64,000 nt of DNA, from contig JAVKJW010000008.1 in the NCBI GenBank assembly GCA_031458695.1, positions 2,967-66,966 of the forward strand. Reading direction: 5' to 3'. Source of the DNA: Candidatus Thermofontivivens primus (GTDB lineage: Bacteria > Sysuimicrobiota > Sysuimicrobiia > Sysuimicrobiales > Thermofontiviventaceae). Shown here piece by piece: positions 19,094 to 62,809 of this stretch. The position numbers and the translations under genes are program-made. Under the pieces are notes generated by a model. It was not told the origin of the DNA, searched no databases, and worked only from the letters and a program-made list of their open reading frames with translations. Numbering within the stretch: the first letter of the stretch is position 1; each line of letters begins with the position of its first letter.

Positions 19094-19100
19094 AGGGGAC

Positions 19101-24116: not shown

Positions 24117-24130
24117 AGCATCCCCCCTAC

Positions 24131-28932: not shown

Positions 28933-28970
28933 TCAGGTATCCTGCTCCTGCGTGTTTAGCCATGGTGCGT

Positions 28971-45700: not shown

Positions 45701-45929
45701 ACCCTGTGTTGCACTGGAGGCAGACAGTGCGCAAGATGTTTTCCGGACGAGAGAGCTCATAGAGGGCACTCCCCTCTCCCGCCTCGGCCTGGTGGAGGAG
45801 TTCAAACGCCCTGTCGATGCGGCGTAGGAGGAGGGCTGAACCTCCCAGGAAGGCCGTGGTCTTGAGGAATTCCCGCCGGGTCATGGGGAGGTCCATCTTT
45901 GGAGATTCCTTCAATGTGCTCCTTAGCAT
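42750..45929 (-). CDS. Tat-exported molybdopterin oxidoreductase catalytic subunit (tetrathionate/polysulfide reductase TtrA/PsrA-like, ~1059 aa)
   Basis: Twin-arginine signal [15 protein letters not shown] and N-terminal [14 protein letters not shown] [4Fe-4S] motif, with large MopB and molybdopterin-binding domains. ATG 45929 follows GGATAGGAGGGGGAAG. Confidence 0.85.
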
Positions 45930-45939
45930 CTTCCCCCTC

Positions 45940-46836: not shown

Positions 46837-46858
46837 AGCCACCTCCTGGACTTGCGGA

Positions 46859-47950
46859 TTACTTCTTCCGCTTCCCTAGGCTGTGGATCCCCTTCGCATA
46901 CTGCGCAGCCCACTTCACCGTCTTGTCCTGGTGGCACTGCAAGCATGCGAAGTCCAGGGTCACGTAGTGCTTGGCAAAGGCTCCGTCAGGGGTGAACATC
47001 TTCGCCTCAGGGTCGGTCTTAATCAGGAAGAGGTGGGTCTTTACATCGCCCTTGTATGGACCCAGGCTTACTGCCGATTTCGTGGCCATAGGCATGTGGC
47101 AATCCACACACCTGACCCCGACGCGTTGCATTGTGCTACCAGCGAAGGCGGCCTGAGCAGCAGAATGGCAGGATGCACAGGTGGTGCGGATAGAGAACTC
47201 TGCCTTCTTGTGGGGGTCGTGACAGTCCACGCACGCAAGCTTGCGATGCGGGCTGGCGAGGTGTTCATTGAACTGCTCGTGGTGCTGGATAAACCCACCT
47301 ACAGCGGGAATGGTTGTCGCTTTGCCCCGGATATGGCAGTTGCCGCAGAACCAAGCGGAGCGATCCGTGGCGATCAGCTTCTTGTCTCCTCCTGCCGCGA
47401 TATGCGCCTGGCCGGGGCCATGGCAGGATTCGCACCCCACGCCAGGGAATACCCATGTGCCTACGATGCCGGGGAGGCCACCCTGGCTTCCCTCAGGCGA
47501 ATACCCCGTGGTGTGACACCGACCGCAGTCATATTTCTTGACCTTCCCGGCCTCGTAATCTGCCCAGGCTCCGGTCATCAGGTTATATTGGTTCTTTCCT
47601 GGTTTCCCGGCTGCGGTGGTGATGAAGAACCCTTTCTTGTCGAGGTAACGTGCCTTCCACTTGTATCCCCCCACGACGTAACTGATGTCGTCCCAGGAGT
47701 ACCCGGCAGGCAAGGGGAGAGGCATATTCTTCGCCTGCTCAGCGGGGATCAGGATATAGGGATGACCGGAGACCTTCCAATCGTTGAACTCCCCAGGGTG
47801 GCACTTGAAGCACGCTTCCGACCCTGCATACGGAGATGTTGCTACTTGCCCGGAGGCGGTGCGGAAGGAGAAAACAGAGGGTGCAAACATGACGCTGACC
47901 AGGAAGATCAGCACTCCTACGATGAGGAGAATCCCACGCGCCCTTCTCAT
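46859..47950 (-). CDS. membrane-anchored octaheme c-type cytochrome
   Basis: Eight CxxCH motifs (CFKCH, CGRCH, CESCH, CGNCH, CVDCH, CASCH, CVDCH, CLQCH) and an N-terminal TM anchor ILLIVGVLIFLVSVMF. Confidence 0.85.
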   Translation of the reverse strand: MRRARGILLIVGVLIFLVSVMFAPSVFSFRTASGQVATSPYAGSEACFKCHPGEFNDWKVSGHPYILIPAEQAKNMPLPLPAGYSWDDISYVVGGYKWKARYLDKKGFFITTAAGKPGKNQYNLMTGAWADYEAGKVKKYDCGRCHTTGYSPEGSQGGLPGIVGTWVFPGVGCESCHGPGQAHIAAGGDKKLIATDRSAWFCGNCHIRGKATTIPAVGGFIQHHEQFNEHLASPHRKLACVDCHDPHKKAEFSIRTTCASCHSAAQAAFAGSTMQRVGVRCVDCHMPMATKSAVSLGPYKGDVKTHLFLIKTDPEAKMFTPDGAFAKHYVTLDFACLQCHQDKTVKWAAQYAKGIHSLGKRKK

Positions 47951-48369
47951 CGAGCTCACCTCACGCGCTGGAGGTTTTTCCTTCAACCCTCGTATCTCCA
48001 ATTCCACCCCTTCTTAGCTTATCGGTGAACCTGGAGCATGAGAATCGAACTAGAACTTGATTCTCCATGTGGTGGTCCACAATTTTGCCTCCTACTCAAA
48101 TCCGATGACCAATGTGGTCTTGATGCATGCGTATCGCACAGCGAAGGAAATAGATCTTCGATCTCATCGCGACCACTGGTGGGTAGAAGACAACCTCCCT
48201 CGCCGATCGATGAGGAGGATCCCTTGCCACAATCTGGCGCGATCTGTTCGCAGATCTCATTCATGATCCTTGTGCTGCTAAGCCGGCCTTGTTTCCTTGC
48301 CGAACGAAGGAGCTCTTTGAGGCTGCTAGGACCGATGGAGGGAGGTCCACGTGATTCCAAGGGGAGCGC

Positions 48370-49888: not shown

Positions 49889-51559
49889 TTAGGATCTCGT
49901 GTAGAGACGCCGGAGGGCGCATGCTGCAGTGAACTCCGCGAGGGCTCCAAACAACCCTTCCGCCTGCGCTTCCTTCTCCTCCGGCGGTAAGGCCAGGTGC
50001 GATCTGACCCGTTCATCCATTTCCTGGAGGGCTTCTCGATCTGCGTACGGGGCGAGGTGCAAGAACAGCTGGTGGTGGGCTTCCCGGCGTTCCATGACCT
50101 CAAGGCCATCCAAAATCTGCCTGTGCGGGGTTCCTTCCCATATGGGGAGGATCATAGCCTCCCGGAGCAGTCGCTCTACAGAATACTCGGCTAACACGCC
50201 AGCACCACCATGGACTTCCATCGTCCATTTGGCTGTCTGGACTGCTACCTCTGCTGTCCAGTATTTCGCCAGGTGTGCGACGAGGCGGAAGAGGTGGTAC
50301 CGGCCAGAGTATCTTGGGGTCTCCAGCCAAACTTCGTCGAGGAGCTGCACAGCTTCCCAGGCAAGGGCGAATGCGAGCTGGAGGGTCCTCACACGCTCCT
50401 CAAACTGCTGGTGAAGCAGGGGGTGGTCAAGGATGCGCTTGCCGAAGGCGACACGTCCTTCCGAGAAGGCAAGTGCTTCCTGGATTGCCCGCTGGGCCAG
50501 AGCGACGCTTCCTATACTGTTGGCGACGCGGGAGATGTTAAGGACCTCCAGAATGAGGTAGATCCCCCATTCGGGTTTGCCAAGGAGATAGGCTACACTG
50601 TCGAGAAGCTCTACCTCCCCGGTAGGAACAGAGCGTGTGCCGATTTTATCCTTCAGGCGGCGGATGAAGTAGTTGAGCCGCCCATCCTCCAGCCTCCTTG
50701 GGAGGAGGAAGAGCGCCAGGCCGCGAACTCCGGGCGGTGCCCCCTCTGGCCTGGCTGCCACCACCGCAACATCCGCTCCCACATTGCTGGCGAAGTACTT
50801 CTCTCCCCTCAGGAGCCAGTAGTCTCCCTGGGGTCGGGCCACTGTCTCCACGCTAGCTCCAAGGTCCGAACCTCCCTTTACCTCTGTCATCCAGGTTGCA
50901 CCCTGCCAAGCGTTGCCATCCCTGCGGAGCAGAGGTGGGAGGTACTTTGTCTTCACCGCCTCGCTTCCATACTTCCAAAGGGGGACACCCGTTGAGAGGG
51001 TGACGGTATAAGGACAGTAGACCCCTGGGTCATAAAAAGAGGTGACGTACCCAAAGAGATAAAAAGGGAGGAGGGTCCTTTCCTCAAAGACCCGCCAGAC
51101 CGCCCCTGCCTTATAGCCCGTCTGAAGCATCTCCCAGTACTCTGGAGGGTACTGGATCTCATCCACACGATTGCCAAAACGGTCGAACATTCGGAGCCAA
51201 GGAGTACCTAAGCGATCAATAAAAGAGGAAATCGCTTTCCCCCTCTCCTCCCACCATCGTTCGTACTCTTCCAGTTGGGCGCGGAGGGCAAAGTCTCTGA
51301 AGGTTTCCTGGAGGAAGCGCGTGGGTGACCGGACAAAATTCCAGCTCACGTTGGACCCTCCTGGTTCCGATTCAGTTTCTAAGGGGAAGTATTCTCCTTG
51401 TCTTGAGGTGGACCTTTCGGAGGACAGGGATGGAGCTCCAACGAAATCTTTTGACAGATGGTGTGTGATGCGGGCTGTCTGGCGAATATGCAATTCGTGG
51501 CTCGCTCGTTCATGCGCTTGCCTGAGAGAGGAATCGGGTACAAGCCCGATAGCGTCCAA
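49889..51559 (-). CDS. acyl-CoA dehydrogenase family protein (AidB-like, ~556 aa)
   Basis: ACAD middle and C-terminal domains (EVKGGSDLGASVETVARPQGDYWLLRGEKYFASN). TTG start as drawn, so the true start is uncertain. Confidence 0.7.
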   Translation of the reverse strand: MDAIGLVPDSSLRQAHERASHELHIRQTARITHHLSKDFVGAPSLSSERSTSRQGEYFPLETESEPGGSNVSWNFVRSPTRFLQETFRDFALRAQLEEYERWWEERGKAISSFIDRLGTPWLRMFDRFGNRVDEIQYPPEYWEMLQTGYKAGAVWRVFEERTLLPFYLFGYVTSFYDPGVYCPYTVTLSTGVPLWKYGSEAVKTKYLPPLLRRDGNAWQGATWMTEVKGGSDLGASVETVARPQGDYWLLRGEKYFASNVGADVAVVAARPEGAPPGVRGLALFLLPRRLEDGRLNYFIRRLKDKIGTRSVPTGEVELLDSVAYLLGKPEWGIYLILEVLNISRVANSIGSVALAQRAIQEALAFSEGRVAFGKRILDHPLLHQQFEERVRTLQLAFALAWEAVQLLDEVWLETPRYSGRYHLFRLVAHLAKYWTAEVAVQTAKWTMEVHGGAGVLAEYSVERLLREAMILPIWEGTPHRQILDGLEVMERREAHHQLFLHLAPYADREALQEMDERVRSHLALPPEEKEAQAEGLFGALAEFTAACALRRLYTRS

Positions 51560-51696
51560 GGCTTCCTCTTCGCTAAGATGGAAGTGGCCCTGTGGAGATC
51601 TTTGGACAAGATTCCACCGGAAACGCTGAGCTTTCAGGTGGAGCCGCGGATCACGTCAAAAACCTTCTGTCAAGGGACTGAGAAGGGGGTGGTGGG

Positions 51697-52269
51697 GTGA
51701 TTGAGATCCGAATCCATGGCCGCGGAGGCCAGGGAGCGGTGGTCGCTTCGAAAATCCTCGCTGATGCGGCCTTTCGTGAAGGGCACTCCGTCCAGACTTT
51801 TCCCCAGTTTGGCGTAGAACGACGCGGTGCGCCGGTTGCTGCTTTCGTCCGCATTGCCGATCCCGACGAGCCCCTCTGGATTCGCTGCCACGTCACCACA
51901 CCCCATATCGTTATCGTCCTCGATGCTACCCTGTTGGAAACTGCCGGGATCCTAGAAGGTTTGCGCGATGGAGGGATCGTCCTGGTGAACTCCCCGCAGC
52001 CTCCAGATGCCCTGGCGATCCCATCCAAGTACCAGGTGGCTACTGTGGATGCTTCGGCGATTGCACTCAAACACAAGCTTGGCACGCGGACCCAACCCAT
52101 TGTGAACACCGCGATCTTAGGTGCGTTCGTGAAGGTGACGCGGTTGGTCCGGTTGGAGTCCGTGCTGGAGGCAATCCGCGAAAACGTCCCCGTAGACCCC
52201 GAAGGGAACGTCCGTGCTGCGGAGGAGGCATTCGCAACTGTCCTGTCAAGCGCACGCGCAGCGGCATGA
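51697..52269 (+). CDS. 2-oxoacid:ferredoxin oxidoreductase gamma subunit (PorG-like)
   Basis: MIEIRIHGRGGQGAVVASKILADAAFREGHSVQTFPQFG. GTG start after GAGAAGGGGGTGGTGG. Confidence 0.85.
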   Translation: MIEIRIHGRGGQGAVVASKILADAAFREGHSVQTFPQFGVERRGAPVAAFVRIADPDEPLWIRCHVTTPHIVIVLDATLLETAGILEGLRDGGIVLVNSPQPPDALAIPSKYQVATVDASAIALKHKLGTRTQPIVNTAILGAFVKVTRLVRLESVLEAIRENVPVDPEGNVRAAEEAFATVLSSARAAA

Positions 52270-52282
52270 GGAGGGATCTCCC

Positions 52283-53953
52283 ATGGGCTCCGATTCGATG
52301 CAGGACCTTCCAGATGCTCCCCTCTCCTGGGGAGACACGCGCTGGAACAAGACGGGGAACTGGCGCCACATGCGTCCTGAAGTGCGCGAGCGTGCTGCGC
52401 CTTGTGCCAAGGCCTGCCCGCTCGGAAACCCTATTCCCAAGGTGATGACTGCCGTGTCCCGGGGGGATCTGGAGGAAGCGGCCCGTCTTCTCCTTGAGCG
52501 TAACCCTTTCCCCGCGATTACCGGAAGGGTTTGCCCACACCCTTGTGAAGTGGGGTGCAACCGGAGGCGCTACGACGAACCCCTGGCGATCCGGTCCATT
52601 GAGCGCCTCGTGGGGGATTGGATCCAAGAACACAGGACGGTTTACTTTCCCTCCGAGACAGGCAAGCGCGTGGCGATCGTTGGATCAGGGCCAGCCGGCC
52701 TCGCGGCAGCCAGCTACCTCCGGCGACAGGGACATCGCGTGGTGGTGTACGACCGGAACGACCGTGTGGGAGGAATGCTGGTGGATGCCATCCCCAGTTA
52801 TCGTCTTCCCCGGAGCGTTGTAGAACGGGAGGCGCGAGCGCTCGAACAGATGGGGGTAGTTTTCCAGCTTGGTGTGACCATCGGGCGCGATGTCTCTGTG
52901 GAGCAGCTTCTTTCCAGTTATGATGCGGTCCTTGTGGCCACTGGCGCACACGGAGAGCGGAGGATGGGGATCCCAGGCGAAGAGCACTTCCTCGGAGGTT
53001 TGGAGTTCCTCCGCGCGGTGCGGCGGGGAGAGAGGAAACCTCCTGGCCGTCGGGTGGCGGTGGTGGGCGGGGGAAACGTGGCGATCGACGTGGCTCGTAC
53101 CCTTGTCCGCTTGGGCGCTTCCCCTGTGATCCTCTACCGCCGGACCCGTAAGGAGATGCCGGCGATTGAGGAGGAGGTGGAGCGTGCTGAGGCCGACGGG
53201 GTGGAATTCCAGTTCCTCACCCTCCCCACATCTGCCGTCAAGCTGGACGGGTACCTTCGTCTTGTGGTGGTCCGAATGCAGCTCGGAGAGCGCGATCGCA
53301 CCGGGCGGCCGCGGCCAGTTCCTATTCCTGGGTCGGAGTTCGAGCTGGAGTGTGACGCAGCCATCCGGGCAATTGGGGAGGTCGCCGAGACAGAATTCCT
53401 GCCCAGGGAAGTCCTGGACGACCAGGGATGGGTTGTTGCCGACAAATTTACAGGGGCGACAAAGAGGGCCGGGCTGTTTGTCGCTGGAGATCTTGTAACA
53501 GGGCCGGCAACAGTTGTGGAAGCGATTGCAGCAGGGCTCAGGGCAGGCAGGGCCATTGACCGGTTCGTGCGGGGGGAGGCTCTTCCCGTGCAGGAGAAGC
53601 CTCTGCCCACAGTTCCCCTCAAGGAGATCAACCTTGATTACTTCCCAAGGGCGTCCCGGGTCTCGATTCCGGAGCTTCCCCTCGCGGCGCGTTGCAAGAC
53701 CTTCGATGAAGAGATCCTAGGCTTGGACCTCAATTCTGCTAGGGGGGAAGCGGCACGTTGTTTTAGCTGCGGGAGTTGCAACCTTTGCGCCAACTGCTGG
53801 ATCTTCTGCCCCGATGCGGCAATCCACCTTGATGGCGATCTTCCCTGGGTGAACCTCGAGTACTGCAAAGGGTGCGGCGTCTGCGCAACGGAGTGCCCGC
53901 GTGGGGTCATCACCATGAAGGAGGAGCTGGCGAGAGAGGGGGCGGTCGCCTGA
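52283..53953 (+). CDS. fusion protein: GltD-like NAD(P)H-dependent FAD/FeS oxidoreductase + PorD-type 2x[4Fe-4S] delta subunit
   Basis: N-terminal CAKACPLGNPIP...RVCPHPCEVGCN...VAIVGSGPAGLAAA (glutamate-synthase small-subunit-like). C-terminal CGSCNLCANCWIFCP and CKGCGVCATECP ferredoxin motifs. RBS GAGGAGGG. Confidence 0.8.
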   Translation: MGSDSMQDLPDAPLSWGDTRWNKTGNWRHMRPEVRERAAPCAKACPLGNPIPKVMTAVSRGDLEEAARLLLERNPFPAITGRVCPHPCEVGCNRRRYDEPLAIRSIERLVGDWIQEHRTVYFPSETGKRVAIVGSGPAGLAAASYLRRQGHRVVVYDRNDRVGGMLVDAIPSYRLPRSVVEREARALEQMGVVFQLGVTIGRDVSVEQLLSSYDAVLVATGAHGERRMGIPGEEHFLGGLEFLRAVRRGERKPPGRRVAVVGGGNVAIDVARTLVRLGASPVILYRRTRKEMPAIEEEVERAEADGVEFQFLTLPTSAVKLDGYLRLVVVRMQLGERDRTGRPRPVPIPGSEFELECDAAIRAIGEVAETEFLPREVLDDQGWVVADKFTGATKRAGLFVAGDLVTGPATVVEAIAAGLRAGRAIDRFVRGEALPVQEKPLPTVPLKEINLDYFPRASRVSIPELPLAARCKTFDEEILGLDLNSARGEAARCFSCGSCNLCANCWIFCPDAAIHLDGDLPWVNLEYCKGCGVCATECPRGVITMKEELAREGAVA

Positions 53954-55119
53954 TGATTACCGCGAGCGCGACAAAGGTCATCACGGGAAACCACGCCGTG
54001 AGCTACGGCGTTCTCCTCAGCCGGGTTCAGGTCATCTCAGCCTACCCCATCACCCCCCAGACGCAGGTAGTGGAACTCCTCTCCGAGTTCGTGGCCAGCG
54101 GGAAGATGGCTGCGCGATTCATCACCGTGGAGTCCGAGCACTCCGCCATGGCCGCCTGCATTGGCGCCGCGTCCGTGGGAGCCAGGACATTCACAGCAAC
54201 TTCCTCCCAGGGCCTTGCCCTCATGCATGAGATGCTTCACTGGGCATCGGGGGCGCGGCTCCCCATTGTGATGGCGAATATCAATCGTGCCCTTGCCCCT
54301 CCTTGGTCCATCTGGACTGATCAGACCGATTCCCTTGCCCAGCGCGATACTGGGTGGATGCAGATCTACGTGGAGACAAGCCAGGAGGCCCTCGATTCCA
54401 TCATCCTCGGGTTCAAGGTCTCTGAGCGTGTCCTTTTACCCACCATGGTCGTTTTGGATGCCTTCCTGCTCTCGCACACCGCCGAGCCTGTCGAGATCTA
54501 CGACCAGGGGAGGGTTGATGAGTTCCTCCCTCCTTTCTCTGCTCCCTATCGCCTGAAGCCTGGTGTGCCTCAAGCACTCGGGGGGCTCGCCGATCCAGGG
54601 GTCTACTTCGAATTCCGGGTGAAGCTCCAAGAGGCCATGGAGAAGGCAAGGGAAGCCATCCTCGAAGAGGGGAAGCGTTTCGCCAAGCTTTTCGGGCGGT
54701 TCTATGGCCTCGTCCAGGAGGAGTTCATGGAAGACGCCGAGATGGTGATCGTGACGGCGGGGGCCATGGCGGGAACTGCCAGGGCCGCTGTCCGGGAGCT
54801 GAGAAACGAGGGCCGGAAGGTAGGGCTCGTGCGGATTCGCGTCTTCCGTCCCTTCCCCTTTGTAGAACTTCGGCAAATCCTGGGAGGGCGAAAGAAAGTG
54901 GCTGTGCTCGACCGCAACCTCTCCCTGGGTCACCACGGGATCTTCTACGAGGAGGTGAAGTCCGCGCTTTACCCCATGGCTGCACGACCCTTAGTGGTGG
55001 GATACGTGCTTGGGCTTGGAGGGCGCGATGTCCGGCCTGAGGATATCCAAGCCATCGTAGACGATCTGGAGATGCGGGAAGAAGCGCCGGAAATCGTCTG
55101 GTGGGGGGTGAAGCGATGA
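53953..55119 (+). CDS. 2-oxoacid:ferredoxin oxidoreductase alpha subunit (PorA-like)
   Basis: MITASATKVITGNHAVSYGVLLSRVQVISAYPITPQT. Overlaps the previous gene by TGATG. Confidence 0.85.
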   Translation: MITASATKVITGNHAVSYGVLLSRVQVISAYPITPQTQVVELLSEFVASGKMAARFITVESEHSAMAACIGAASVGARTFTATSSQGLALMHEMLHWASGARLPIVMANINRALAPPWSIWTDQTDSLAQRDTGWMQIYVETSQEALDSIILGFKVSERVLLPTMVVLDAFLLSHTAEPVEIYDQGRVDEFLPPFSAPYRLKPGVPQALGGLADPGVYFEFRVKLQEAMEKAREAILEEGKRFAKLFGRFYGLVQEEFMEDAEMVIVTAGAMAGTARAAVRELRNEGRKVGLVRIRVFRPFPFVELRQILGGRKKVAVLDRNLSLGHHGIFYEEVKSALYPMAARPLVVGYVLGLGGRDVRPEDIQAIVDDLEMREEAPEIVWWGVKR

Positions 55120-56060
55120 GGACGGGGACGTTGCTGTGGGCAGGACTGGAGGTCCCACAGGAAGAGTACCTCCACCCCGGCCACCTGGCCTGCCAGGGGT
55201 GCGGGGCAGCGCTCGCCATGCGCCTTGTCCTGAAAGCGGTGGGAGGGGATGTGATGGTGGTGCTCCCGGCCTGCTGCTGGACGATCATCGACGGGCCTTT
55301 TCCCTACCACGCTCTCAGAGTTCCCCTCCTCCATACTGCGTTTGAGACGGCAGCAGCGGCAGCAGCGGGGGTGAAGGCGGGGCTTGAGGTTCTGGGGGAT
55401 ACAAGGACCCAGGTGATCGCCTGGGCAGGGGATGGAGGTACTTTCGACATCGGTCTCCAGGCTCTTTCAGGAGCTGCAGAGCGGAACGAGGACATCCTCT
55501 ACATCTGCTACGACAACGAAGCCTATATGAACACAGGGATCCAGCGGAGCAGCGCCACCCCCCTCGGCGCCTGGACAACCACAACACCCGAGGCGCACCC
55601 GGAGGATCGCCCCAAGAAAGACTTAATGGCCATCATGGCCGCCCACCGCATCCCCTATGCTGCGACGGCGACGGTCGCCTTTCCCGATGACCTCATCCGG
55701 AAGGCCCGCAAGGCCAAGGGGATCAGGGGTACGCGTCTATTACATATCCTTGCGCCCTGCCCGCCGGGATGGCGCATGGAGAGCGAGCGGATGATCAAGG
55801 TCTCCCGCCTCGCCGTGGCCACAGGAGCTTTTCCCCTCTTCGAGGTGGAGGAGGGAACACGGTATACCCTGACTTATCGCCCCGCAGGGCTCCCCCTGAA
55901 GGAGTATCTGAAGCTCCAAGGGAGATTCGCGCATCTCACCGAAGACCAGATCGCCGTTTTGGAGAAGCAGGTAGAGGCGCGCTGGAAGGAGCTCTTGGAG
56001 TTGCATGCCCGAACCCACGGAACAGTCGAAGATATCCCTGTAGTTCCCTTTGGAGGGTGA
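55116..56060 (+). CDS. 2-oxoacid:ferredoxin oxidoreductase beta subunit (TPP-binding, PorB-like)
   Basis: CQGCGAALA...GDGGTFDIGLQALSGAAERNEDILYICYDNEAYMNTG is the TPP motif. ATGA overlap with the alpha subunit. Confidence 0.85.
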   Translation: MRTGTLLWAGLEVPQEEYLHPGHLACQGCGAALAMRLVLKAVGGDVMVVLPACCWTIIDGPFPYHALRVPLLHTAFETAAAAAAGVKAGLEVLGDTRTQVIAWAGDGGTFDIGLQALSGAAERNEDILYICYDNEAYMNTGIQRSSATPLGAWTTTTPEAHPEDRPKKDLMAIMAAHRIPYAATATVAFPDDLIRKARKAKGIRGTRLLHILAPCPPGWRMESERMIKVSRLAVATGAFPLFEVEEGTRYTLTYRPAGLPLKEYLKLQGRFAHLTEDQIAVLEKQVEARWKELLELHARTHGTVEDIPVVPFGG

Positions 56061-56064
56061 GAGA

Positions 56065-57180
56065 ATGGATATCTCCGTGCCCCGGGAGACGACCCGGGAG
56101 GAGACGAGAGTGCCCCTCTCCCCGGCCGCGGTACGGGCGCTGGTGCAGCGCGGGCACCGTGTATTCGTGGAGCGCCGTGCCGGGGAATTCGCAGGGTTTA
56201 CAGACGATGCCTACACTTCTGCCGGGGCCACTGTGGTCTACAGCGCAGAGGAAGCCTTTCGCCGTGGCGAGCTCGTGGTGAAGGTCCAGGCCCCGTCTCC
56301 TTCGGAGCTTGCCCACCTGGAGAAGGGCCAGATGGTCATGGCATTCTGGCACTTCCCCATCCTGCCGTCCGCTAGCCTCGAGCGAGTTCTTGCAGGGGAG
56401 ATTACCGCCATCGCCTACGAGCTGATGCAGTCCTCCAACGGTACCCTCCCGGTGTTGCGGGCGATGAGCCAGATTGGGGGGAGGCTCGCGATCCAGAGAG
56501 CCGCCATTCTCCTCGAGACGATCCAGGGAGGTGCTGGTGTCCTCCTCGGGGGGATCCCAGGGATTCCCCCCGCAGAGGTCGTGATCCTGGGAGGAGGCAC
56601 GGTGGCGCAGAATGCCGCCATGGCTGCGCTCGGTCTGGGGGCACATGTCACCATCATCGAGAAGGACTTAGAACGCCTCCAGTTGCTGGAACAACGGTTT
56701 CCAGCCGGGGTGACCACTATGGTCTCCAATGAGGAGACCATCCGCAAGGCCGTCACGTATGCCAACGTCCTCATTGGGGCGGTGCTCGTCCCAGGAGAGC
56801 GAACGCCCATCCTGGTCACGCGGGAGATGGTTCGGTCGATGCGTCCCAGGTCCGTGATCATAGACCTTTCCATTGACCAAGGAGGATGCGTGGAGACGAG
56901 CCGGCCCACGACCCTGAGGGATCCCGTGTATGTCGAGGAGGGAATCATCCACTGCTGCGTTCCGAACCTTCCCGCAGCCGTGAGCAGGACGGCCTCCCGG
57001 GCGCTCAGCAACGCCATCCATCCGATCATCGAGGAGCTTGCTGAAAAAGGCTTCTCTCAAGCGGTCCGTACCAATCCTCTCCTGGAGTCTGCGGTGTGCT
57101 CCTACCGTGGGCACCTCACCCATCCCACCGTCTCCCGCTCCCTTGGCCGAACTTGGACTCCCCTCACTTCCCTCCTCTGA
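56065..57180 (+). CDS. ald: alanine dehydrogenase family protein
   Basis: MDISVPRETTREETRVPLSPAAVRALVQRGHRVFVE plus the VILGGGTVAQNAAMAALGLGAHVTI Rossmann region. RBS GGAGGGTGAGAG. Confidence 0.8.
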   Translation: MDISVPRETTREETRVPLSPAAVRALVQRGHRVFVERRAGEFAGFTDDAYTSAGATVVYSAEEAFRRGELVVKVQAPSPSELAHLEKGQMVMAFWHFPILPSASLERVLAGEITAIAYELMQSSNGTLPVLRAMSQIGGRLAIQRAAILLETIQGGAGVLLGGIPGIPPAEVVILGGGTVAQNAAMAALGLGAHVTIIEKDLERLQLLEQRFPAGVTTMVSNEETIRKAVTYANVLIGAVLVPGERTPILVTREMVRSMRPRSVIIDLSIDQGGCVETSRPTTLRDPVYVEEGIIHCCVPNLPAAVSRTASRALSNAIHPIIEELAEKGFSQAVRTNPLLESAVCSYRGHLTHPTVSRSLGRTWTPLTSLL

Positions 57181-57184
57181 GGTG

Positions 57185-58492
57185 ATGCCGTTGGCTGGGA
57201 TCGATTGGGTGAACCTGTACAGGAGCAAGATCACGACTCCTGAGGACGCCGTGCGTCTCGTCCAGAGAGGCCACCGTGTGTATATCAGTGGGAACGCGGC
57301 AACGCCGCACATCCTCCTAGAAGCCCTCGCCCATAGGGCACCTGAGCTCGAGGGGGTAGAGGTCCTCCATGTCTTGATGCTCGGAGAGACCTCGCTCTCC
57401 CGCCCCGAGATCGCTGGGCACGTCCGGTTGAACGCCTTCTTCGTGGGGCCTGGGGACCGGGAGGCGGTGAACGAGGGGCGAGCGGATTACATTCCCATCT
57501 TCCTCCATGAGATCCCGAAGGTGCTGAGGGGTGAGCTGGCCCCCGATATCGTCTTGCTGCAAACCTCACCTCCCGATGAGCATGGCTTCTTGAGTCTGGG
57601 GACCGAGGTCCTGGCCAACCTCGCCGCCATCTCCCAGGCGAAATACGTTATCGTCCACGTTAACGAGCGCATGCCACGGACCCTTGGGAACTCGTTCATT
57701 CACCTCTCCCGTGTCTCCCGGATTGTGGAGATGCCTTGGGAGCTCCCAGAGCTCCGTCCCCGGCCGTTCACCGAGGTCGAGGAGCGCATTGGGAGGTACA
57801 TCGCAGAGCTCATTCCCGATGGCGCCACCTTACAGCTTGGAATCGGTGGGATCCCCGATGCCGTCCTCGCGGCATTGACCAACCATCGAGACCTTGGAAT
57901 CCACTCTGAGATGGTCTCCGATGGTGTCATGAACCTGGTGGAGGCAGGAGTCATTACAGGAGCGCGGAAAACCCTCCACCCCGGGAAGGTGGTTGCCACG
58001 TTCATCCTAGGGAGCCGGCGGCTCTATGACTTTGTGGACAATAACCCCCTATTTGAACTTCATCCCGTGGATTACACCAACGATCCCTTTGTGATCGCCC
58101 AGAATGCACGGATGGTCGCAGTGAACTCTGCCCTGGAGGTCGACCTCACGGGGCAGGTTTGCGCGGATTCTCTGGGGACATTTATTTACTCGGGGTTTGG
58201 TGGACAGCTGGATTTCATCCGCGGCGCAGCCCGCTCCCAGGGTGGGATCCCCATCATCGCCCTTCCTTCCACAGCCAAGGGAGGGACTGTTTCCCGCATT
58301 GTCCCGACGCTGACCCCGGGCGCAGGCGTTGTCACCACGAGGGCCGATGTACACTATGTGGTCACGGAGTACGGGGTTGCTCATCTCCACGGGAAAAGCC
58401 TCCGGCAGCGGGCTCAGGCGCTCATCGCCATCGCCCATCCTAAGTTCCGTCCTTGGCTAGAGGAGGAAGCCCGCAAGCGCCACCTCCTGTGA
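57185..58492 (+). CDS. acetyl-CoA hydrolase/transferase family protein (4-hydroxybutyrate/succinyl-CoA:acetate CoA-transferase-like)
   Basis: Two-domain CoA-transferase pattern (…GIHSEMVSDGVMNLVEAG…GGQLDFIRGA…). Confidence 0.8.
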   Translation: MPLAGIDWVNLYRSKITTPEDAVRLVQRGHRVYISGNAATPHILLEALAHRAPELEGVEVLHVLMLGETSLSRPEIAGHVRLNAFFVGPGDREAVNEGRADYIPIFLHEIPKVLRGELAPDIVLLQTSPPDEHGFLSLGTEVLANLAAISQAKYVIVHVNERMPRTLGNSFIHLSRVSRIVEMPWELPELRPRPFTEVEERIGRYIAELIPDGATLQLGIGGIPDAVLAALTNHRDLGIHSEMVSDGVMNLVEAGVITGARKTLHPGKVVATFILGSRRLYDFVDNNPLFELHPVDYTNDPFVIAQNARMVAVNSALEVDLTGQVCADSLGTFIYSGFGGQLDFIRGAARSQGGIPIIALPSTAKGGTVSRIVPTLTPGAGVVTTRADVHYVVTEYGVAHLHGKSLRQRAQALIAIAHPKFRPWLEEEARKRHLL

Positions 58493-58668: not shown

Positions 58669-59319
58669 ATGCTTGTCAAGGAGTGGATGACCACCGAGGT
58701 GATCACGGTAGATAGCAGGACACCGCTCTACGATGCATTGCGCCTCATGGAGAAGAAGCGTATCCGGCGTCTCCCGGTGGTGGACCGGGGGAAGCTCGTG
58801 GGGATCGTTACTTGGACAGATTTGATGCGCGCTCAGCCCTCTCCGGCCACCTCCCTTGCCGTGTGGGAAATTCCTTATCTTCTTTCCAAGGCCCAAGTCG
58901 CAGATGTGATGACACGGAACCCCATCACCATCTCCCCCGATATGCCTCTTGAGGAGGCTGCCCTCCTCATGCGGGAAAAGAAGATCGGCGGGCTCCCGGT
59001 GATGGAAGGGGAGCGCCTTGTGGGAATCATCACCGAGAGTGACATCTTCGACGCTTTGATCGACGTCCTAGGTCTTCGCACGCCTGGCGCGCGACTCGTC
59101 GTGACCTTGGAAACTCCCCAGGCCGTTTGCGGCGTCCTGAGTGCCATTGAATCCACGGGATCGGCAGTCCACAACTTGGCCCTCTACCACCAGGATGGTC
59201 AGGTCCGGCTCGTCCTGCGGGTGGAAAAGGCGAAGGCGAAGGAAGTCGAGCGCGTGTTGCACGACCAAGGATTCCGGATTGTGTACGCGAACCATGTAGA
59301 GGTACGCGCGGCAGGATAG
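58669..59319 (+). CDS. CBS-pair protein with C-terminal ACT-like domain (AcuB-like)
   Basis: Two CBS motifs (VITVDSRTPLYDALRLM.., VMTRNPITISPDMPLEEAALLMREKKIGGLPV) plus a C-terminal ~70-aa ACT-like region. RBS AAAGGAGG. Confidence 0.75.
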   Translation: MLVKEWMTTEVITVDSRTPLYDALRLMEKKRIRRLPVVDRGKLVGIVTWTDLMRAQPSPATSLAVWEIPYLLSKAQVADVMTRNPITISPDMPLEEAALLMREKKIGGLPVMEGERLVGIITESDIFDALIDVLGLRTPGARLVVTLETPQAVCGVLSAIESTGSAVHNLALYHQDGQVRLVLRVEKAKAKEVERVLHDQGFRIVYANHVEVRAAG

Positions 59320-59386
59320 AAAGAACCCCCTGCAAAATCCCCGTTGCAGCTCTCAGGCAACGGGGGAACGGGGAAGGTGGCGGGAC

Positions 59387-60583
59387 ATGGCGTCTGAGGT
59401 GACCTTCCCCTTTCTCTCCATCCGAGAAGGGACCATCAACATTGGAACGCGCGACGGCGCCCTCTACACATTCGACCGGGAGGGGCGTCTCTTCGCCGCC
59501 TACCGGGACGGACACCTCTACCGGAGGGGGTTGGATAACCGTCTCAAGGAGAAATGGTCGGAGGGAGGTCGGCGGTTCTACCGGGACGTGGAAGGGGAAG
59601 AAAAGGCGATCTTCCTGGAGGGCGTGATCAAAGTTGTGCAGGAAGTGGTATGGGCGCTGAAACGCGGGGATGCAGAGGTGCTTGCGCCCGCCAGGGCTGT
59701 CTCCCCAAGAGAAGTCGAGGAGGTATTGGAACGGATCCTGCGGCACGACGCGAAGACTTTGGAAGAGGAAAAGCAGGATTTCTTTGCTGTGTACAAGCCC
59801 GTGAGCATTCTTCCTCCCGACCAATACCTTGCCGTGGTCTTCCAGGCGACGGAGGGGTGCCACTGGAACCGTTGTACATTCTGCACCTTCTACCGGGACC
59901 GTCCTTTCCGGATCAAACCCCTTGAGGAGTTCCGCAGGCACGTCCGGGCTGTCCTGGAGTTCCTGGGAGAAGGCCTCTCCATGCGGCGTTCGATTTTTCT
60001 CGCCGATGCGAACGCCCTGGTCACTCCCCAGCCTCACCTGAGGGCGTTCATCCAGACGATTGAAGAGGTCCTGCCCGTACGCGAGATGGGCATCTACTCT
60101 TTCTTGGATATCTTTACCGGGCGGAGGAAACCTCCTGAGGAATTTGCCGAGCTCCGGGAGCTTGGATTGCGGCGTGTCTACATAGGGCTGGAAACCGGGG
60201 ACGATGAACTCCTCCGCTTCTTGAACAAGCCAGGGAGCGCGCGGGATGCCATTGAGGTGGTCAGGGCGCTCAAGGGAGCAGGGGTGCATGTTGGTGTGAT
60301 TGTCATGGTAGGGGTTGGAGGGGAGAAGTTTGCCCAAAGTCACGTAGATCGCACTGTCGAAGTCCTCCATGCTATGGAGCTCGGACCCGGTGATATTATC
60401 TACCTCTCCGAGTTCATCGAATTTCCAGGAAGCGCTTATGTGGAGAGAGCGCGTGCGGAAGGGATCCGGCCCCTGGACGAAGGAGCGATCAAGGCGCAGA
60501 GACGGACTCTCATCGAGAGACTCCGATTTCCTAGCGGCCGTCCCAAGATCGCCCGCTACTCCCTCCAGGAGTACATCTATTAA
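59387..60583 (+). CDS. radical-SAM-like protein with atypical CX4CX2C cluster motif and uncharacterised 150-aa N-domain
   Basis: ATEGCHWNRCTFCTFY, and downstream the LETGDDELLRF/GVIVMVGVGGE TIM-barrel-like region. Confidence 0.55.
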   Translation: MASEVTFPFLSIREGTINIGTRDGALYTFDREGRLFAAYRDGHLYRRGLDNRLKEKWSEGGRRFYRDVEGEEKAIFLEGVIKVVQEVVWALKRGDAEVLAPARAVSPREVEEVLERILRHDAKTLEEEKQDFFAVYKPVSILPPDQYLAVVFQATEGCHWNRCTFCTFYRDRPFRIKPLEEFRRHVRAVLEFLGEGLSMRRSIFLADANALVTPQPHLRAFIQTIEEVLPVREMGIYSFLDIFTGRRKPPEEFAELRELGLRRVYIGLETGDDELLRFLNKPGSARDAIEVVRALKGAGVHVGVIVMVGVGGEKFAQSHVDRTVEVLHAMELGPGDIIYLSEFIEFPGSAYVERARAEGIRPLDEGAIKAQRRTLIERLRFPSGRPKIARYSLQEYIY

Positions 60584-60660: not shown

Positions 60661-61743
60661 TCAGGTTCGTGGGTTTGGCGGAGGAGAGAGCCGCCCAGCC
60701 TGGTGTAGCAGGGCGAGGGTCTCTTCCAAAGGAAGCGCCTCCAGGAGGTGGCCGTCTCTTCCTACCAGGGTTGTCGCCCGGAAGAGGCTATTGAGAACCG
60801 CTTCCTCGGTGGCCTCCTCGGCTGCGCGGAAGAGATGGTTGAGGACCTCGGGGTCAACCTTCTCCATGGCACGTGTGGTCGTGAAAGCGATCACAAGGTC
60901 ACCACTGCGGTAGCCGCCTGTCCAACCAGTGCGGGCGAGGCCGATGGGACACCGCCGGGCCACCCGTTTCAAGGAGGTGGGATCAAGAAAGGCATCGGTG
61001 GCGAGGACGATGACCACGGAACCTCCTTGGACGATGGGAGGCTCTCTTTGGCTGAGGAGTCGGCCGACGGGAACGCCGGCGATGAGAAGGTCCTCCCTTC
61101 GCCCCATATTTGTCACCACCAAGACACCTACCCGGAACCCTCCTGCCTCCTCCGGGAGGAGGCGAGAGCTGGTCCCTACCCCTCCCTTGAAGCCGTAACA
61201 GGCAGTTCCGACACCTGCTCCGACGGTCCCCTCCTCGACGAGACCGCCTTTCGCGCCTTCGATGGCGGCGAAGACATGCTCCTCTCTCACGTGGCGGCCC
61301 TGGGCATCGTTGAGGTAGCCATCGTGGCACTCGGCGACTACTGGGTTGACGGTGGGTCCAGAGATGCCGATCTCCCGGTTCTCCCGGAGGACCCAGGAAA
61401 TGAGCCCATCGGCCACCCTGGGGACGTTCAAGGTGCTGGTGATCAGAATGGGTGTCTCCAGTTCCCCGAGTTCTTCGATCTGGATCAACCCTGTCGCTTT
61501 CGCGAATCCATTGAAGACGTGAACAGCAGCCGTCACAGGTTCTCGGTAGATATTCCCAGGGTGCGGAAGGATAGCGGTCACGCCGGTCCGGATGGGTCCT
61601 TTCCCCGGGATCAGAGGGCCTTCCCCTTCGAGGAGGGAAACGTGGCCAACACGCACTTCGCCGACGTCGGTGATGGCATTCAGCGGACCACACGGCAAGG
61701 AACCGATCTGAAGCCCCGTCTCTCGGACTCTAGGACGGTACAT
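60661..61743 (-). CDS. peptidase family S58 (DmpA / L-aminopeptidase D-Ala-esterase/amidase-like)
   Basis: GPLNAITDVGEVRVGH...GFKGGVGTSS are DmpA/P1-family motifs. Confidence 0.8.
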   Translation of the reverse strand: MYRPRVRETGLQIGSLPCGPLNAITDVGEVRVGHVSLLEGEGPLIPGKGPIRTGVTAILPHPGNIYREPVTAAVHVFNGFAKATGLIQIEELGELETPILITSTLNVPRVADGLISWVLRENREIGISGPTVNPVVAECHDGYLNDAQGRHVREEHVFAAIEGAKGGLVEEGTVGAGVGTACYGFKGGVGTSSRLLPEEAGGFRVGVLVVTNMGRREDLLIAGVPVGRLLSQREPPIVQGGSVVIVLATDAFLDPTSLKRVARRCPIGLARTGWTGGYRSGDLVIAFTTTRAMEKVDPEVLNHLFRAAEEATEEAVLNSLFRATTLVGRDGHLLEALPLEETLALLHQAGRLSPPPNPRT

Positions 61744-61870: not shown

Positions 61871-62788
61871 TTACCGCCCTCGCAGCCGTGGATCGAGGAC
61901 GTCCCGGATTCCGTCCCCCAGGAGGTTGAAGCCCAGCACCACCAGAGAGATCGCCAGGCCAGGGAAGGTAGAAAGCCACCACTGCCCGGGGATGTAGTTG
62001 CGCCCCTCGGAGATCATCAGCCCCCACTCTGGTGTCGGTGGTTGCGCGCCGAAGCCGATAAACCCCAGGCCTGCCGCGGTGAGGATGATCCCGCCCATGT
62101 CGAGACTCACCTGGATGATGACGGGGCTCACGACGCCGGGAAGGATATGCCGCAGCAGGATGCGAGAGGTGCTGGCTCCCACTGCCTGGGCGGCCTCCAC
62201 GTAAACCTCCTCCCGGATGGCCATCGTGACGCTCCGTGCCAGACGAGCGTACGTGGGCCATCCGGCAAGGGCGATGGCGATGACTACGTTCTCAAGTGTA
62301 GGGCGGAGGGCAGCGGCGATGGCCATGGCAAGGACAAGCCTGGGGAATGCCATGAACATATCGGTGACGCGCATCAGCAGATCATCCACACGGCCGCGGA
62401 AGTACCCGGAGAAGATCCCTACTGGGAACCCAATGACCGTCGAGATCAACGCTGTCAGGATGGCGATGCGCAGGGAGATGCGCGCACCATACAGGACGCG
62501 GCTGAAGACATCGCGTCCCAGCTGGTCGGTACCAAAGAGATGGTGGCTGCTCGGGGGCGCCAGGCGATTGGCAATATCGGTGCGCAGGGGATCGTAGGGG
62601 GCGAGGAGGGGAGCCAGTGCGGCGACGCAGATGAGGAGGCCAATGATCGCGAGGCCAGCAAGGGAGAGCGGGTTGCGCAGCGTCCTCCAGGCGAGGCGCA
62701 GGGTCCGGACCCGCTCCTGCCGAAGACGTGCGGCCATCGCCGCCTCCATCCACACTGTGGCAGGGGTTTTTGCCTCCGCTGGTTCCAT
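61871..62788 (-). CDS. ABC transporter permease, DppC/OppC type
   Basis: FGTDQLGRDVFSRVLYGARISL. ATG 62788 (MEPAEAK). Confidence 0.85.
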   Translation of the reverse strand: MEPAEAKTPATVWMEAAMAARLRQERVRTLRLAWRTLRNPLSLAGLAIIGLLICVAALAPLLAPYDPLRTDIANRLAPPSSHHLFGTDQLGRDVFSRVLYGARISLRIAILTALISTVIGFPVGIFSGYFRGRVDDLLMRVTDMFMAFPRLVLAMAIAAALRPTLENVVIAIALAGWPTYARLARSVTMAIREEVYVEAAQAVGASTSRILLRHILPGVVSPVIIQVSLDMGGIILTAAGLGFIGFGAQPPTPEWGLMISEGRNYIPGQWWLSTFPGLAISLVVLGFNLLGDGIRDVLDPRLRGR

Positions 62789-62809
62789 CGGGATCGGTTC
62801 ACGCATAGC

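Follow-up and report, generated by a model that had tools for sequence, protein, structure and literature searches.

Gene content of the locus

A 64,000-nucleotide stretch of the Candidatus Thermofontivivens primus genome (GenBank assembly GCA_031458695.1, contig JAVKJW010000008.1, positions 2,967 to 66,966 of the forward strand), hereafter called the window, carries six tightly packed, consecutive plus-strand genes at positions 51697-58492 (all coordinates are those of the window). Each of the six products has a strong family match in Pfam and NCBIfam. The first four genes correspond to the subunits of a POR-type 2-oxoacid:ferredoxin oxidoreductase (OFOR), whose delta subunit appears to be interrupted by a flavoprotein module. 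The last two encode a relative of alanine dehydrogenase (AlaDH) and a CoA-transferase. We consider it probable, at roughly 60%, that these genes constitute two functional units in one transcription unit, namely an OFOR linked to NADP+ and a pair formed by an alanine dehydrogenase-like protein and its CoA-transferase (ADLP-CoAT). The six genes are listed below.

51697-52269, plus strand: porG, 190 amino acids (aa), gamma subunit of a POR/VOR-type 2-oxoacid oxidoreductase
52283-53953 (ATG start), plus strand: composite delta gene, 556 aa, PorD interrupted by a GltD/NfnL-like cassette with predicted sites for FAD, NADP(H) and two [4Fe-4S] clusters
53953-55119, plus strand: porA, 388 aa, alpha subunit
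55116-56060, plus strand: porB, 314 aa, beta subunit, which binds thiamine pyrophosphate (TPP) and a [4Fe-4S] cluster
56065-57180, plus strand: AlaDH-like gene, 371 aa, most likely an inactive NAD+/NADH sensor of the ADLP type
57185-58492, plus strand: CoA-transferase gene, 435 aa, class I, orthologue of Thermus thermophilus TtCoAT

The likely start codons of all six genes were fixed from the sequence. The GTG start of porG is preceded by a Shine-Dalgarno-like run (AAGGGGGTGG), and the 13-nucleotide spacer between porG and the composite delta gene contains GGAGG. The sequence-only reading of this DNA had described ATGA and TGATG overlaps, and both are present: the composite delta gene shares one nucleotide with porA (TGATG), and porA shares four with porB (ATGA). 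Gaps of 4 nucleotides separate porB from the AlaDH-like gene and the latter from the CoA-transferase gene. The same reading had counted eight plus-strand genes ending at the CoA-transferase. There are only six, since the genes preceding porG are encoded on the minus strand, and a run of eight is reached only if the CBS-domain and radical-SAM genes downstream are counted. Gene calls on a contig from an Armatimonadota metagenome-assembled genome (MAG; GCA_031432505.1) agree with the six-gene layout, and the composite delta protein is 100% identical to an Armatimonadota MAG protein at NCBI.

The subunits of the oxidoreductase core are readily recognized. PorG carries the POR domain (PF01558, E = 5e-38) and scores 189.5 bits against the PorC_KorC model TIGR02175 (cut-off 81.1). 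PorA contains POR_N (PF01855, E = 1e-73) and PFOR_II (PF17147, E = 5e-31), and its best solved relative is the POR of Methanosarcina acetivorans, with 343 bits to the alpha subunit (9bt4_B). PorB matches TPP_enzyme_C (PF02775, E = 2e-21), and both a GDG...N motif for TPP and four Cys residues are visible in its translation. The composite delta gene occupies the delta slot of what is otherwise a canonical gamma-delta-alpha-beta POR operon, and there is no separate porD gene. The four products are therefore predicted, from their sequences, to assemble into a TPP/[4Fe-4S] 2-oxoacid oxidoreductase of the archaeal type with four subunits. Its substrate is probably pyruvate and/or branched-chain 2-oxoacids.

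A flavoprotein cassette inserted into PorD

Three segments can be distinguished within the composite delta gene.

52283-52399, plus strand: PorD N-terminal segment, residues 1-39, with the motif NKTGNWRHMRP
52400-53773, plus strand: inserted cassette, residues ~40-497 (~458 aa), running from PC41xxxC45P to RC493FSC496G
53774-53950, plus strand: PorD ferredoxin core, residues 498-556, with two CxxCxxCxxxCP motifs (C499/502/505/509 and C528/531/534/538)

Domain searches with the whole protein return Fer4_20 (PF14691, E = 2e-19), Pyr_redox_2 (PF07992, E = 3e-35) and a C-terminal Fer4 domain. The protein also exceeds the cut-off of NCBIfam NF009410 (PRK12771; 527.6 bits, cut-off 516), aligning to model positions 31-565 of 566. 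Models of PorD and VorD match its last ~55 residues, as do the structures of PorD, VorD and the OOR delta subunit. In addition, the N-terminus (WNKTGNWRHMRP) is the N-terminal signature of PorD. Among the 120 best database homologues, 112 have this motif or a close variant as well as the C-terminal motif block, and T24 and W27 are invariant across 61 homologues.

An in silico excision, in which residues 40-497 were deleted to leave 99 residues, bears directly on how the module and PorD are joined. The score against M. acetivorans PorD (9bt4_G) rose from 41.6 to 58.2 bits, and the alignment now covered residues 11-80 of 85. In this alignment the N-terminal segment of the excised protein pairs with residues 11-30 of 9bt4_G, and it likewise aligns to the delta subunit of oxalate oxidoreductase. 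Against the PorD_KorD model TIGR02179 (cut-off 60.05), the intact protein scores 56.5 bits and the excised protein 76.8 bits, spanning model positions 7-77 of 78. Because ~39 residues of PorD with the motif NKTGxWRxxRP precede the module, and because its removal raises the PorD scores, these comparisons identify the module as an insertion between the N-terminal strand of PorD and the ferredoxin core. The sequence-only reading had described a PorD-type domain fused behind a GltD-like module. A GltD-like module and a PorD-type domain for two [4Fe-4S] clusters are indeed combined in one protein, but a simple N-terminal fusion is ruled out by the N-terminal PorD motif and the excision scores.

Cofactor sites and circular permutation of the cassette

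An alignment of the 61 homologues (43-89% identity) reveals strong conservation of the predicted cofactor sites. The residues C41, C45, C84, C88 and C92 are invariant or nearly so, and E107 is nearly invariant. Also invariant are the FAD motif GSGPAG (134-139), the NADP motif GGGNVA (262-267, of which GGGN is 262-265), Y285-R286-R287, a GD motif, C493 and C496 within EAxRCFSCG, and all eight Cys of the two CxxCxxCxxxCP motifs, making 15 Cys altogether. The YRR motif is present in all of the top 120 homologues. The earlier reading stood to fail if the module lacked FAD and NAD(P)H binding motifs, and these are intact and invariant in the family.

Alignment to Thermotoga maritima NfnB equates C45, C84, C88 and E107 with the proximal-cluster ligands C51, C90, C96 and E117, and C41 and C92 with the distal-cluster ligands C47 and C100. 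The two other distal ligands of NfnB, C39 and C42, have no N-terminal counterpart in the cassette. We considered whether the distal [4Fe-4S] cluster had been lost for want of an N-terminal CxxC pair, and rejected this because an invariant RC493xxC496G lies after the FAD domain in a segment homologous to the N-terminus of NfnB and GltD. It is reasonable to infer that C493 and C496 supply the remaining distal ligands. The cassette would thus hold FAD and NADP(H) sites plus seven Cys and one Glu as ligands for two [4Fe-4S] clusters.

A profile built from the residues after the FAD domain (~446-499) matches the N-termini of NfnL (5jca_L, residues 6-45, E = 1.4e-9), NfnB (4ylf_B, 4-42, E = 1.5e-7) and GltD (6s6s_G, 9-53, E = 9e-6). 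The same profile matches the segment that follows the FAD domain in NfnA/StnC (9n5u_A 552-594, 9bov_A 525-567 and 8oh5_C 525-566). Because this segment is homologous to the N-termini of NfnL, NfnB and GltD, the cassette is, as judged by homology, circularly permuted relative to NfnB and GltD and has the topology of the NfnL-like insert of Bfu-type NfnA/StnC. An AlphaFold2 model of the composite delta subunit is confident throughout (pLDDT 93.4, pTM 0.90). Its best Foldseek matches are NfnA/StnC chains, aligned over ~585 columns that include the cassette and the following ferredoxin domain (TM scores 0.78-0.79), followed by NfnB, NfnL and GltD. The fold of the cassette matches 4ylf_B, 5jca_L and 6s6s.

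A predicted electron route to NADP+

Given this anatomy, we propose that a delta subunit gained a permuted GltD/NfnL-like cassette by insertion, and that the resulting enzyme would be a ferredoxin-independent, non-bifurcating 2-oxoacid:NADP+ oxidoreductase. Electrons would pass from the TPP radical to the [4Fe-4S] cluster of the beta subunit, then through the two delta [4Fe-4S] clusters to the distal cluster of the cassette (C41, C92, C493, C496), its proximal cluster (C45, C84, C88, E107), FAD and finally NADP+. The standard potentials of the acetyl-CoA + CO2/pyruvate couple and of NADP+ are approximately -500 mV and -320 mV, respectively. A drop of this size would render the oxidative decarboxylation practically irreversible, with NADPH formed and the low-potential electrons forfeited. 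Such effective irreversibility speaks against pyruvate synthesis driven by NADPH as the role of the enzyme.

A direct transfer of electrons to NAD(P)+, as the sequence-only reading had predicted, is the most economical interpretation because the FAD and NAD(P)H motifs are intact, the delta slot is occupied, there is no separate porD, and no NfnA-like partner is nearby. Indeed, neither the window operon nor any of six related operons contains a gene for an NfnA-like (PyrK-like [2Fe-2S]/FAD) protein. Where an NfnB-like protein lacks a neighboring nfnA gene, it is known to be a non-bifurcating ferredoxin:NADP+ reductase that does not conserve energy (PMC12221290). Furthermore, because the YRR motif is invariant, the acceptor is likely to be NADP(H) rather than NAD(H). 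YRR is a determinant of NADP(H) specificity in NfnB, where it accommodates the 2'-phosphate, and in DsrL-2 (PMC7596348).

An AlaDH-like protein and its probable partner, a CoA-transferase

The product of the fifth gene aligns with true AlaDHs over its entire length, with E = 8e-96 to the AlaDH of T. thermophilus (2eez). It retains the Rossmann motif GGGTVA and has an acidic residue, Glu, at the position of D198 in the Mycobacterium tuberculosis (Mtb) enzyme. However, it reads KVQAP where AlaDHs have KVKEP, placing Gln at the position of the catalytic, pyruvate-binding Lys (K75 in Mtb, K73 in TT_C1770). None of the 120 nearest homologues has Lys at this position (86 have Ala, 12 Thr, 11 Ser, 8 Gly, 2 Gln and 1 Glu). 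The protein also falls below the cut-off of the alanine dehydrogenase model TIGR00518 (382.2 bits versus 391.85), and its identity to relatives drops from 100% straight to 55%.

The last gene of the locus encodes a class I CoA-transferase of the 4-hydroxybutyrate CoA-transferase/TtCoAT family with AcetylCoA_hydro (PF02550, E = 9e-25) and AcetylCoA_hyd_C (PF13336, E = 2e-70) domains that is ~69% identical to TtCoAT (9vag_F) over 423 residues (609 bits). It scores only 331 against the butyryl-CoA:acetate equivalog TIGR03948 (cut-off 675). PDB entries 9wns and 9wnu contain TtCoAT together with an 'alanine dehydrogenase'. According to a recent preprint (bioRxiv 10.1101/2025.10.31.685773), TtCoAT moves CoA between acetyl-CoA and short-chain fatty acids, and the product of the adjoining gene, the Thermus ADLP, no longer has the catalytic Lys and shows no activity on any of the 20 amino acids. 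It binds NAD+ and NADH, and its NAD+ form tightens onto the transferase and inhibits it. The Lys is replaced throughout the ADLP clade (bioRxiv 10.1101/2025.10.31.685773).

An AlaDH-like gene lies directly upstream of a CoA-transferase gene in all five homologue loci that were opened. Because the catalytic Lys is replaced and because the association with the CoA-transferase gene is conserved, and not on account of raw similarity, the window pair is most likely an ADLP-CoAT system in which an AlaDH-like pseudoenzyme acts as an NAD+/NADH sensor that regulates a short-chain acyl-CoA transferase. The pseudoenzyme would bind NAD+ or NADH and inhibit the transferase when NAD+ is bound. The transferase would shift CoA between acetyl-CoA/acetate and other short acyl groups, and could process the acyl-CoA released by the OFOR. 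The step from alanine to pyruvate that the sequence-only reading placed at the start of a catabolic module is not supported, given the Gln substitution, the complete lack of Lys among the 120 homologues, the subthreshold TIGR00518 score, and the synteny with CoA-transferase genes.

The window pair resembles TtCoAT-ADLP (9wns/9wnu) in that an AlaDH-like gene without the catalytic Lys adjoins a gene for a class I CoA-transferase. It differs in having Gln where the Thermus protein has Ala, and in adjoining an OFOR in the same predicted transcription unit. Among organisms with ADLP-CoAT, the acetylated Lys5 is reported to be conserved only in Thermus (bioRxiv 10.1101/2025.10.31.685773).

Comparison with known electron-transfer systems

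Several characterized systems share features with the predicted oxidoreductase. The NADH-dependent phenylglyoxylate dehydrogenase PadEFGHI of Azoarcus/Aromatoleum likewise combines a POR-type gamma/delta/alpha/beta core with a flavoprotein, through which a pyridine nucleotide rather than ferredoxin receives the electrons. Its NAD+-reducing flavoprotein is reportedly a separate fifth subunit, and NAD+ its acceptor, whereas the module in the window is inserted in the delta subunit and carries the NADP(H)-type YRR motif. The window subunits match the PadE, PadF, PadG and PadI models weakly and far below the cut-offs (141 versus 300, 292 versus 700, 233 versus 700 and 45 versus 150, respectively). 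Pyruvate:NADP+ oxidoreductase (PNO) of Euglena and Cryptosporidium is a pyruvate:ferredoxin oxidoreductase wired covalently to an NADP+-reducing flavoprotein in a single chain, with a C-terminal FMN/FAD domain of the cytochrome-P450-reductase type. The predicted net reaction and logic of the window enzyme are the same, but it has four subunits and a GltD/NfnL-type cassette with FAD and two [4Fe-4S] clusters, which is an unrelated reductase domain.

The closest structural likeness is to NfnA/StnC of the Bfu-type NfnABC/StnABC transhydrogenases (9bov, 9n5u and 8oh5). These best structural matches have the same permuted arrangement, with a CxxC pair after the FAD domain and a domain for two [4Fe-4S] clusters thereafter, and the FAD equivalent to that of the cassette is a plain NADPH site rather than the bifurcating center (PMC12018979). 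In those complexes, however, the host is a NuoG/HydA-like subunit of a bifurcating machine, and the proximal ligand is Lys where the composite delta subunit has Glu. The NfnB-like ferredoxin:NADP+ oxidoreductases of the Cac_0764 type also have a GltD/NfnB-like FAD module with two [4Fe-4S] clusters and no NfnA partner, and they deliver electrons from low-potential iron-sulfur (FeS) clusters to NADP+ without energy conservation (PMC12221290). They are free-standing and use soluble ferredoxin, whereas the 'ferredoxin' of the composite delta subunit is its covalently attached PorD domain.

DsrL, an NAD(P)H:acceptor oxidoreductase of dissimilatory sulfur metabolism, shares the overall architecture, membership of NF009410, and an RCxxCG motif followed by a PorD-like ferredoxin domain, and DsrL-2 has YRR. 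It differs in that its gene adjoins dsrAB/dsrN, it works with DsrAB, and the TGxW part of the PorD motif is lost. The authors who defined DsrL noticed por-linked homologues and explicitly excluded them, taking as DsrL only proteins from organisms with dsrAB whose genes are not linked to por/vor (PMC7596348). The composite delta gene falls outside this definition, as it lies within a por operon and no dsr genes are found among the window open reading frames (ORFs) examined.

Three homologues from DsrL contexts (L012:5917-7596, L003:5863-7602 and L044:5920-7596) have RCxSCG directly before the PorD-like ferredoxin domain, and their N-termini (..LRPxxxxKxxPC) resemble a decayed PorD motif. After excision of the cassette, DsrL matches PorD models best (48 bits). 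Perhaps DsrL descends from a cassette-bearing PorD. Because a CxxC pair exists after the FAD domain, the published assignment of the DsrL distal-cluster ligands, in which Ser/Thr and Arg replace NfnB C39/C42, may have to be reconsidered.

Weighing alternative explanations

The first unit could be a POR with a built-in ferredoxin:NADP+ reductase, in which free ferredoxin is still reduced at the delta clusters while the cassette equilibrates with NADP(H). The ferredoxin core of PorD is fully conserved, the stand-alone relatives of the cassette are ferredoxin:NADP+ reductases (PMC12221290), and DsrL, with the same architecture, docks on its partner via the C-terminal ferredoxin domain (PMC7596348). 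We nevertheless regard such a dual-acceptor enzyme as unlikely, given that the covalent insertion and the confidently packed ferredoxin domain of the model (pTM 0.90) suggest an internal wire and that the operon encodes no ferredoxin. There is still less to recommend a cassette FAD that bifurcates as in NfnB, such that NADPH and a high-potential acceptor would drive reductive carboxylation or, alternatively, 2-oxoacid oxidation would be confurcated with a second donor. In its favor, NfnB, to which the cassette is homologous, is the bifurcating subunit, and the cassette keeps the Glu ligand of NfnB and GltD rather than the Lys of NfnA. In addition, some hosts (Acetothermia) are probable users of the Wood-Ljungdahl pathway and would hence need pyruvate synthesis. 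Yet neither an NfnA-like protein nor any other third redox partner is encoded in the operons seen, the nearest structural relatives use the equivalent FAD as a simple NADPH site, and NADPH alone is ~180 mV too positive for 2-oxoacid synthesis. A bifurcating enzyme thus strikes us as improbable.

It is far harder still to credit that the composite delta protein is no POR subunit at all and instead functions as a free-standing, DsrL-like NAD(P)H:acceptor oxidoreductase. Its 37-41% identity to homologues in dsrAB-dsrN contexts and the shared NCBIfam family speak for such a role. On the other hand, the protein keeps the PorD-specific N-terminal motif that is degraded in DsrL, its gene is translationally coupled to porA and always occupies the delta position, no further delta gene exists in the operon, and no dsr genes occur among the window ORFs examined. 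For the second unit, the competing view is that an active AlaDH feeds pyruvate to an NAD(P)+-linked POR and that the CoA-transferase turns the resulting acetyl-CoA into acetate. High overall similarity to true AlaDHs, the retention of residues equivalent to R15, H96, E118 and D270, and the NCBI annotation of the protein as alanine dehydrogenase all favor this view. We judge it quite unlikely, however, because the catalytic Lys has become Gln and Ala substitution of the conserved Arg15, Lys75, His96 and Asp269 abolished AlaDH activity (PMC10401832). Moreover, the whole neighboring clade lacks the Lys and is tied to CoA-transferase genes, the Thermus member shows no activity on any of the 20 amino acids, and the TIGR00518 score is below its cut-off.

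A number of points also weigh against our preferred interpretation of an NADP+-linked OFOR joined to an ADLP-CoAT pair. The PorA scores are closest to PorA models yet below cut-off (PorA_Arch 495.8, cut-off 550; VorA 468, cut-off 646). PorB reaches 374.5 against the PorB model (cut-off 405), and 409.5 against the VOR-beta subfamily model NF008818 (cut-off 405). The assignment of cluster ligands in the cassette has its basis in the alignment to NfnB, and the delta clusters could be open to free ferredoxin. Targeted full-text searches of the literature turned up neither a description nor an assay of the POR-hosted form, and no characterized fusion of a POR delta subunit with GltD. With regard to the second unit, the AlaDH-like protein and a profile of its clade score higher against true AlaDH (325 and 464 bits, respectively) than against Thermus ADLP (269 and 390 bits), such that raw similarity is uninformative for placing the protein. 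The Gln substituent is rare in its clade (2 of 120), the protein may have residual or altered activity, and the evidence on ADLP comes from a preprint on one organism (bioRxiv 10.1101/2025.10.31.685773). Finally, among cassette-bearing operons, the AlaDH-like and CoA-transferase genes follow porB only in the window and in an 89%-identical relative (L057).

Distribution of cassette-bearing por operons

The sequence-only reading proposed a search for the same architecture in other genomes, and it is found in several phyla. The gene order porG-delta-porA-porB with a cassette-bearing delta gene and no separate porD occurs in an Armatimonadetes groundwater MAG (L001), candidate division WOR-3 (L002) and an unclassified MAG (L033). 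The same order, again without a separate porD, also occurs in Candidatus Acetothermia (L055/L056) and on a hydrogenase-rich contig (L058). In one further lineage (L059), porG is fused on to the delta gene as well, giving a protein of 750 aa. The PorA and PorB proteins adjoining cassette-bearing delta genes are 57-69% identical to those of the window in six of seven operons, the most divergent being L033 (42-46%). For comparison, PorA and PorB of a Thermoflexus OFOR with an ordinary gamma-delta fusion are 44-49% identical to those of the window.

A profile of the junction between the PorD motif and the start of the cassette matches 784 cluster representatives (50% identity) at E <= 1e-3 and 206 at E <= 1e-10, and 42 of the top 150 matches are full length. 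Short matches might have been ordinary PorD proteins, but the eight that were read are all fragments of cassette-bearing proteins. Genome-scan matches with ~38% identity were considered as further por-linked examples and set aside, as they are located among dsrAB-, dsrN- and dsrMK-like genes and are DsrL.

Other arrangements were also encountered. In an Aquificota MAG (L024:5447-7470), the gene after porG is a cassette-bearing, delta-like gene of reduced length (496 aa) that adjoins genes for a DeoC aldolase and a GGDEF protein instead of porA and porB. Syntrophobacteraceae MAGs (L026:2855-10557 and L029) carry OFOR alpha, beta and gamma genes, followed by a gene for a 1,124-aa protein with a GltD-like module and a C-terminal ferredoxin domain, and then by one for an MvhD(FlpD)/CCG (HdrB/C-like) protein. 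Here an OFOR may be coupled to NAD(P)H in another way, of the bifurcation type. The same cassette, bounded by PPCSSDCP and EANRCFNCGC, is also found inside CoxM/XdhB-type flavoprotein subunits (P0106, P0112-P0115 and P0119; 744-796 aa, one named Dehalococcoidia), between FAD_binding_5 (residues 3-120) and CO_deh_flav_C (691-784). These subunits are a third type of host, in which the cassette has the same boundaries.

Cassettes are thus seen in PorD at the window locus, in NuoG/HydA-like NfnA/StnC, and in CoxM/XdhB-like flavoprotein subunits. We tentatively speculate, at somewhat less than even odds, that the ~458-aa PCxxxCP...RCxxCG unit is a portable, permuted GltD/NfnL cassette that has been spliced into unrelated FeS and flavoprotein hosts as an NADP(H) port and that, in POR, it has created a widespread prokaryotic 2-oxoacid:NADP+ oxidoreductase, a bacterial analogue of PNO. 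Perhaps the two ends of the cassette meet at one [4Fe-4S] cluster and so permit its entry into unrelated hosts.

Genomic neighborhood of the two units

Three further features adjoin the six genes.

58669-59319, plus strand: CBS-domain gene (PF00571, E = 8e-41), which may belong to the unit
59387-60583, plus strand: radical-SAM gene, downstream of the CBS-domain gene
51350-51696, no strand: divergent intergenic region between a minus-strand acyl-CoA dehydrogenase gene and porG

The promoter of the operon is presumably located in the divergent region, although no sigma-70 consensus was found in 51350-51696, and consensus scans for promoters and terminators gave nothing useful. Upstream of porG, all on the minus strand, are genes for an AidB-like acyl-CoA dehydrogenase, an AF_1253 protein, an ArsA-like ATPase, a multihaem cytochrome, a 4Fe-4S subunit and a 1,059-aa molybdopterin oxidoreductase. 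A functional link between the acyl-CoA dehydrogenase gene and the operon was set aside, as that gene is on the other strand and, in the close relative L057, another gene intervenes between it and porG. Downstream, 176 nucleotides separate the CoA-transferase gene from the CBS-domain gene.

Seen from the ADLP-CoAT side, OFOR operons are directly upstream in two of the five loci opened. In Thermoflexus (L062) the order is gamma-delta fusion, alpha, beta, CBS, ADLP, CoAT, and in L065 it is delta, alpha, beta, gamma, CBS, aminotransferase, ADLP, CoAT, CBS. Coupling of an OFOR to the CoA-transferase, which the sequence-only reading had cast as a path from pyruvate via acetyl-CoA to acetate, is therefore plausible. 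For acetyl-CoA to become acetate, however, another carboxylate would have to accept the CoA, and pyruvate is only one of the candidate substrates. CBS-domain genes flank ADLP-CoAT in three of the five loci (L062, L063 and L065), as well as in the window and L057, and their products might be further nucleotide sensors.

The CBS-domain and radical-SAM genes of the window (58669-60583) are kept with the operon in L057, and Thermoflexus has a radical-SAM/SPASM gene a few genes downstream of ADLP-CoAT. Two sets of oligopeptide/dipeptide ABC transporter genes lie at 51-5330 (plus strand) and 61871-63817 (minus strand) of the window, and an S58 (DmpA-like) peptidase gene lies at 60661-61743 (minus strand). 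Because an aminotransferase gene is present in L065, and because peptide transporters occur on both window flanks with the S58 peptidase nearby, we hypothesize a setting of peptide or amino acid catabolism. Transamination would yield 2-oxoacids, the OFOR would convert these to acyl-CoA, and the transferase would exchange CoA with acetate or acetyl-CoA under NAD+/NADH control.

Other features of the window

A respiratory-type module at 42750-48007 (minus strand) comprises a molybdopterin oxidoreductase of 1,059-1,065 aa, a 4Fe-4S (Fer4_11) subunit and a multihaem cytochrome c. Next to this module are genes for a small protein of the AF_1253 family and for an ArsA-like ATPase that has an HSP20-like domain. 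The region 14943-30725 looks like an island for the catabolism of purines/ureides or N-heterocycles, with FdrA/AllF-like (CoA-ligase domains), AllG-like and AllH-like (oxamate carbamoyltransferase) proteins, a cyclase, a molybdenum enzyme of the xanthine-dehydrogenase family and an amidase. A gene for a 782-aa family B DNA polymerase at 32263-34611 (minus strand) might mark a mobile element or prophage remnant. Long antisense ORFs, such as that at 46883-48028 (plus strand) opposite the cytochrome gene at 46859-48007 (minus strand), were rejected as genes and are a by-product of the ~60% G+C content.

Significance

Much of what is described here has precedent. The wiring of an OFOR core to a flavoprotein that reduces pyridine nucleotides is known from Pad and PNO, the type of cassette from NfnABC/StnABC, and the whole architecture from DsrL, and labels for such proteins exist in NCBIfam (NF009410) and at JGI. 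The anatomy of insertion plus permutation, the PCxxxCP...RCxxCG cassette in CoxM/XdhB-like flavoproteins (P0114 type), and the finding that excised DsrL matches PorD models best seem to be new. The insertion and permutation anatomy suggests cut sites for such modules in protein design, and it bears on the distal-cluster ligands of DsrL. Automated 'alanine dehydrogenase' labels in the clade of the AlaDH-like protein are probably wrong.

If the proposed electron route is correct, many uncultivated bacteria would oxidize pyruvate or other 2-oxoacids with an OFOR core of the oxygen-sensitive type and pass the electrons to NADP+ rather than to ferredoxin. The lineages seen with cassette-bearing por operons include Armatimonadota, Acetothermia/Bipolaricaulota, WOR-3 and Hydrothermales. 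Metabolic models built from metagenomes, which now treat all por operons as producing or consuming reduced ferredoxin, would then change in their redox and energy balances. The enzyme would also offer a compact, NADPH-generating decarboxylase for metabolic engineering, and it would constitute a further natural solution, besides eukaryotic PNO and Pad, to the coupling of OFORs to pyridine nucleotides. Should the cassette prove to be portable as we speculate, some lineages would in addition co-regulate an OFOR with a CoA-transferase that is gated by NAD+/NADH.

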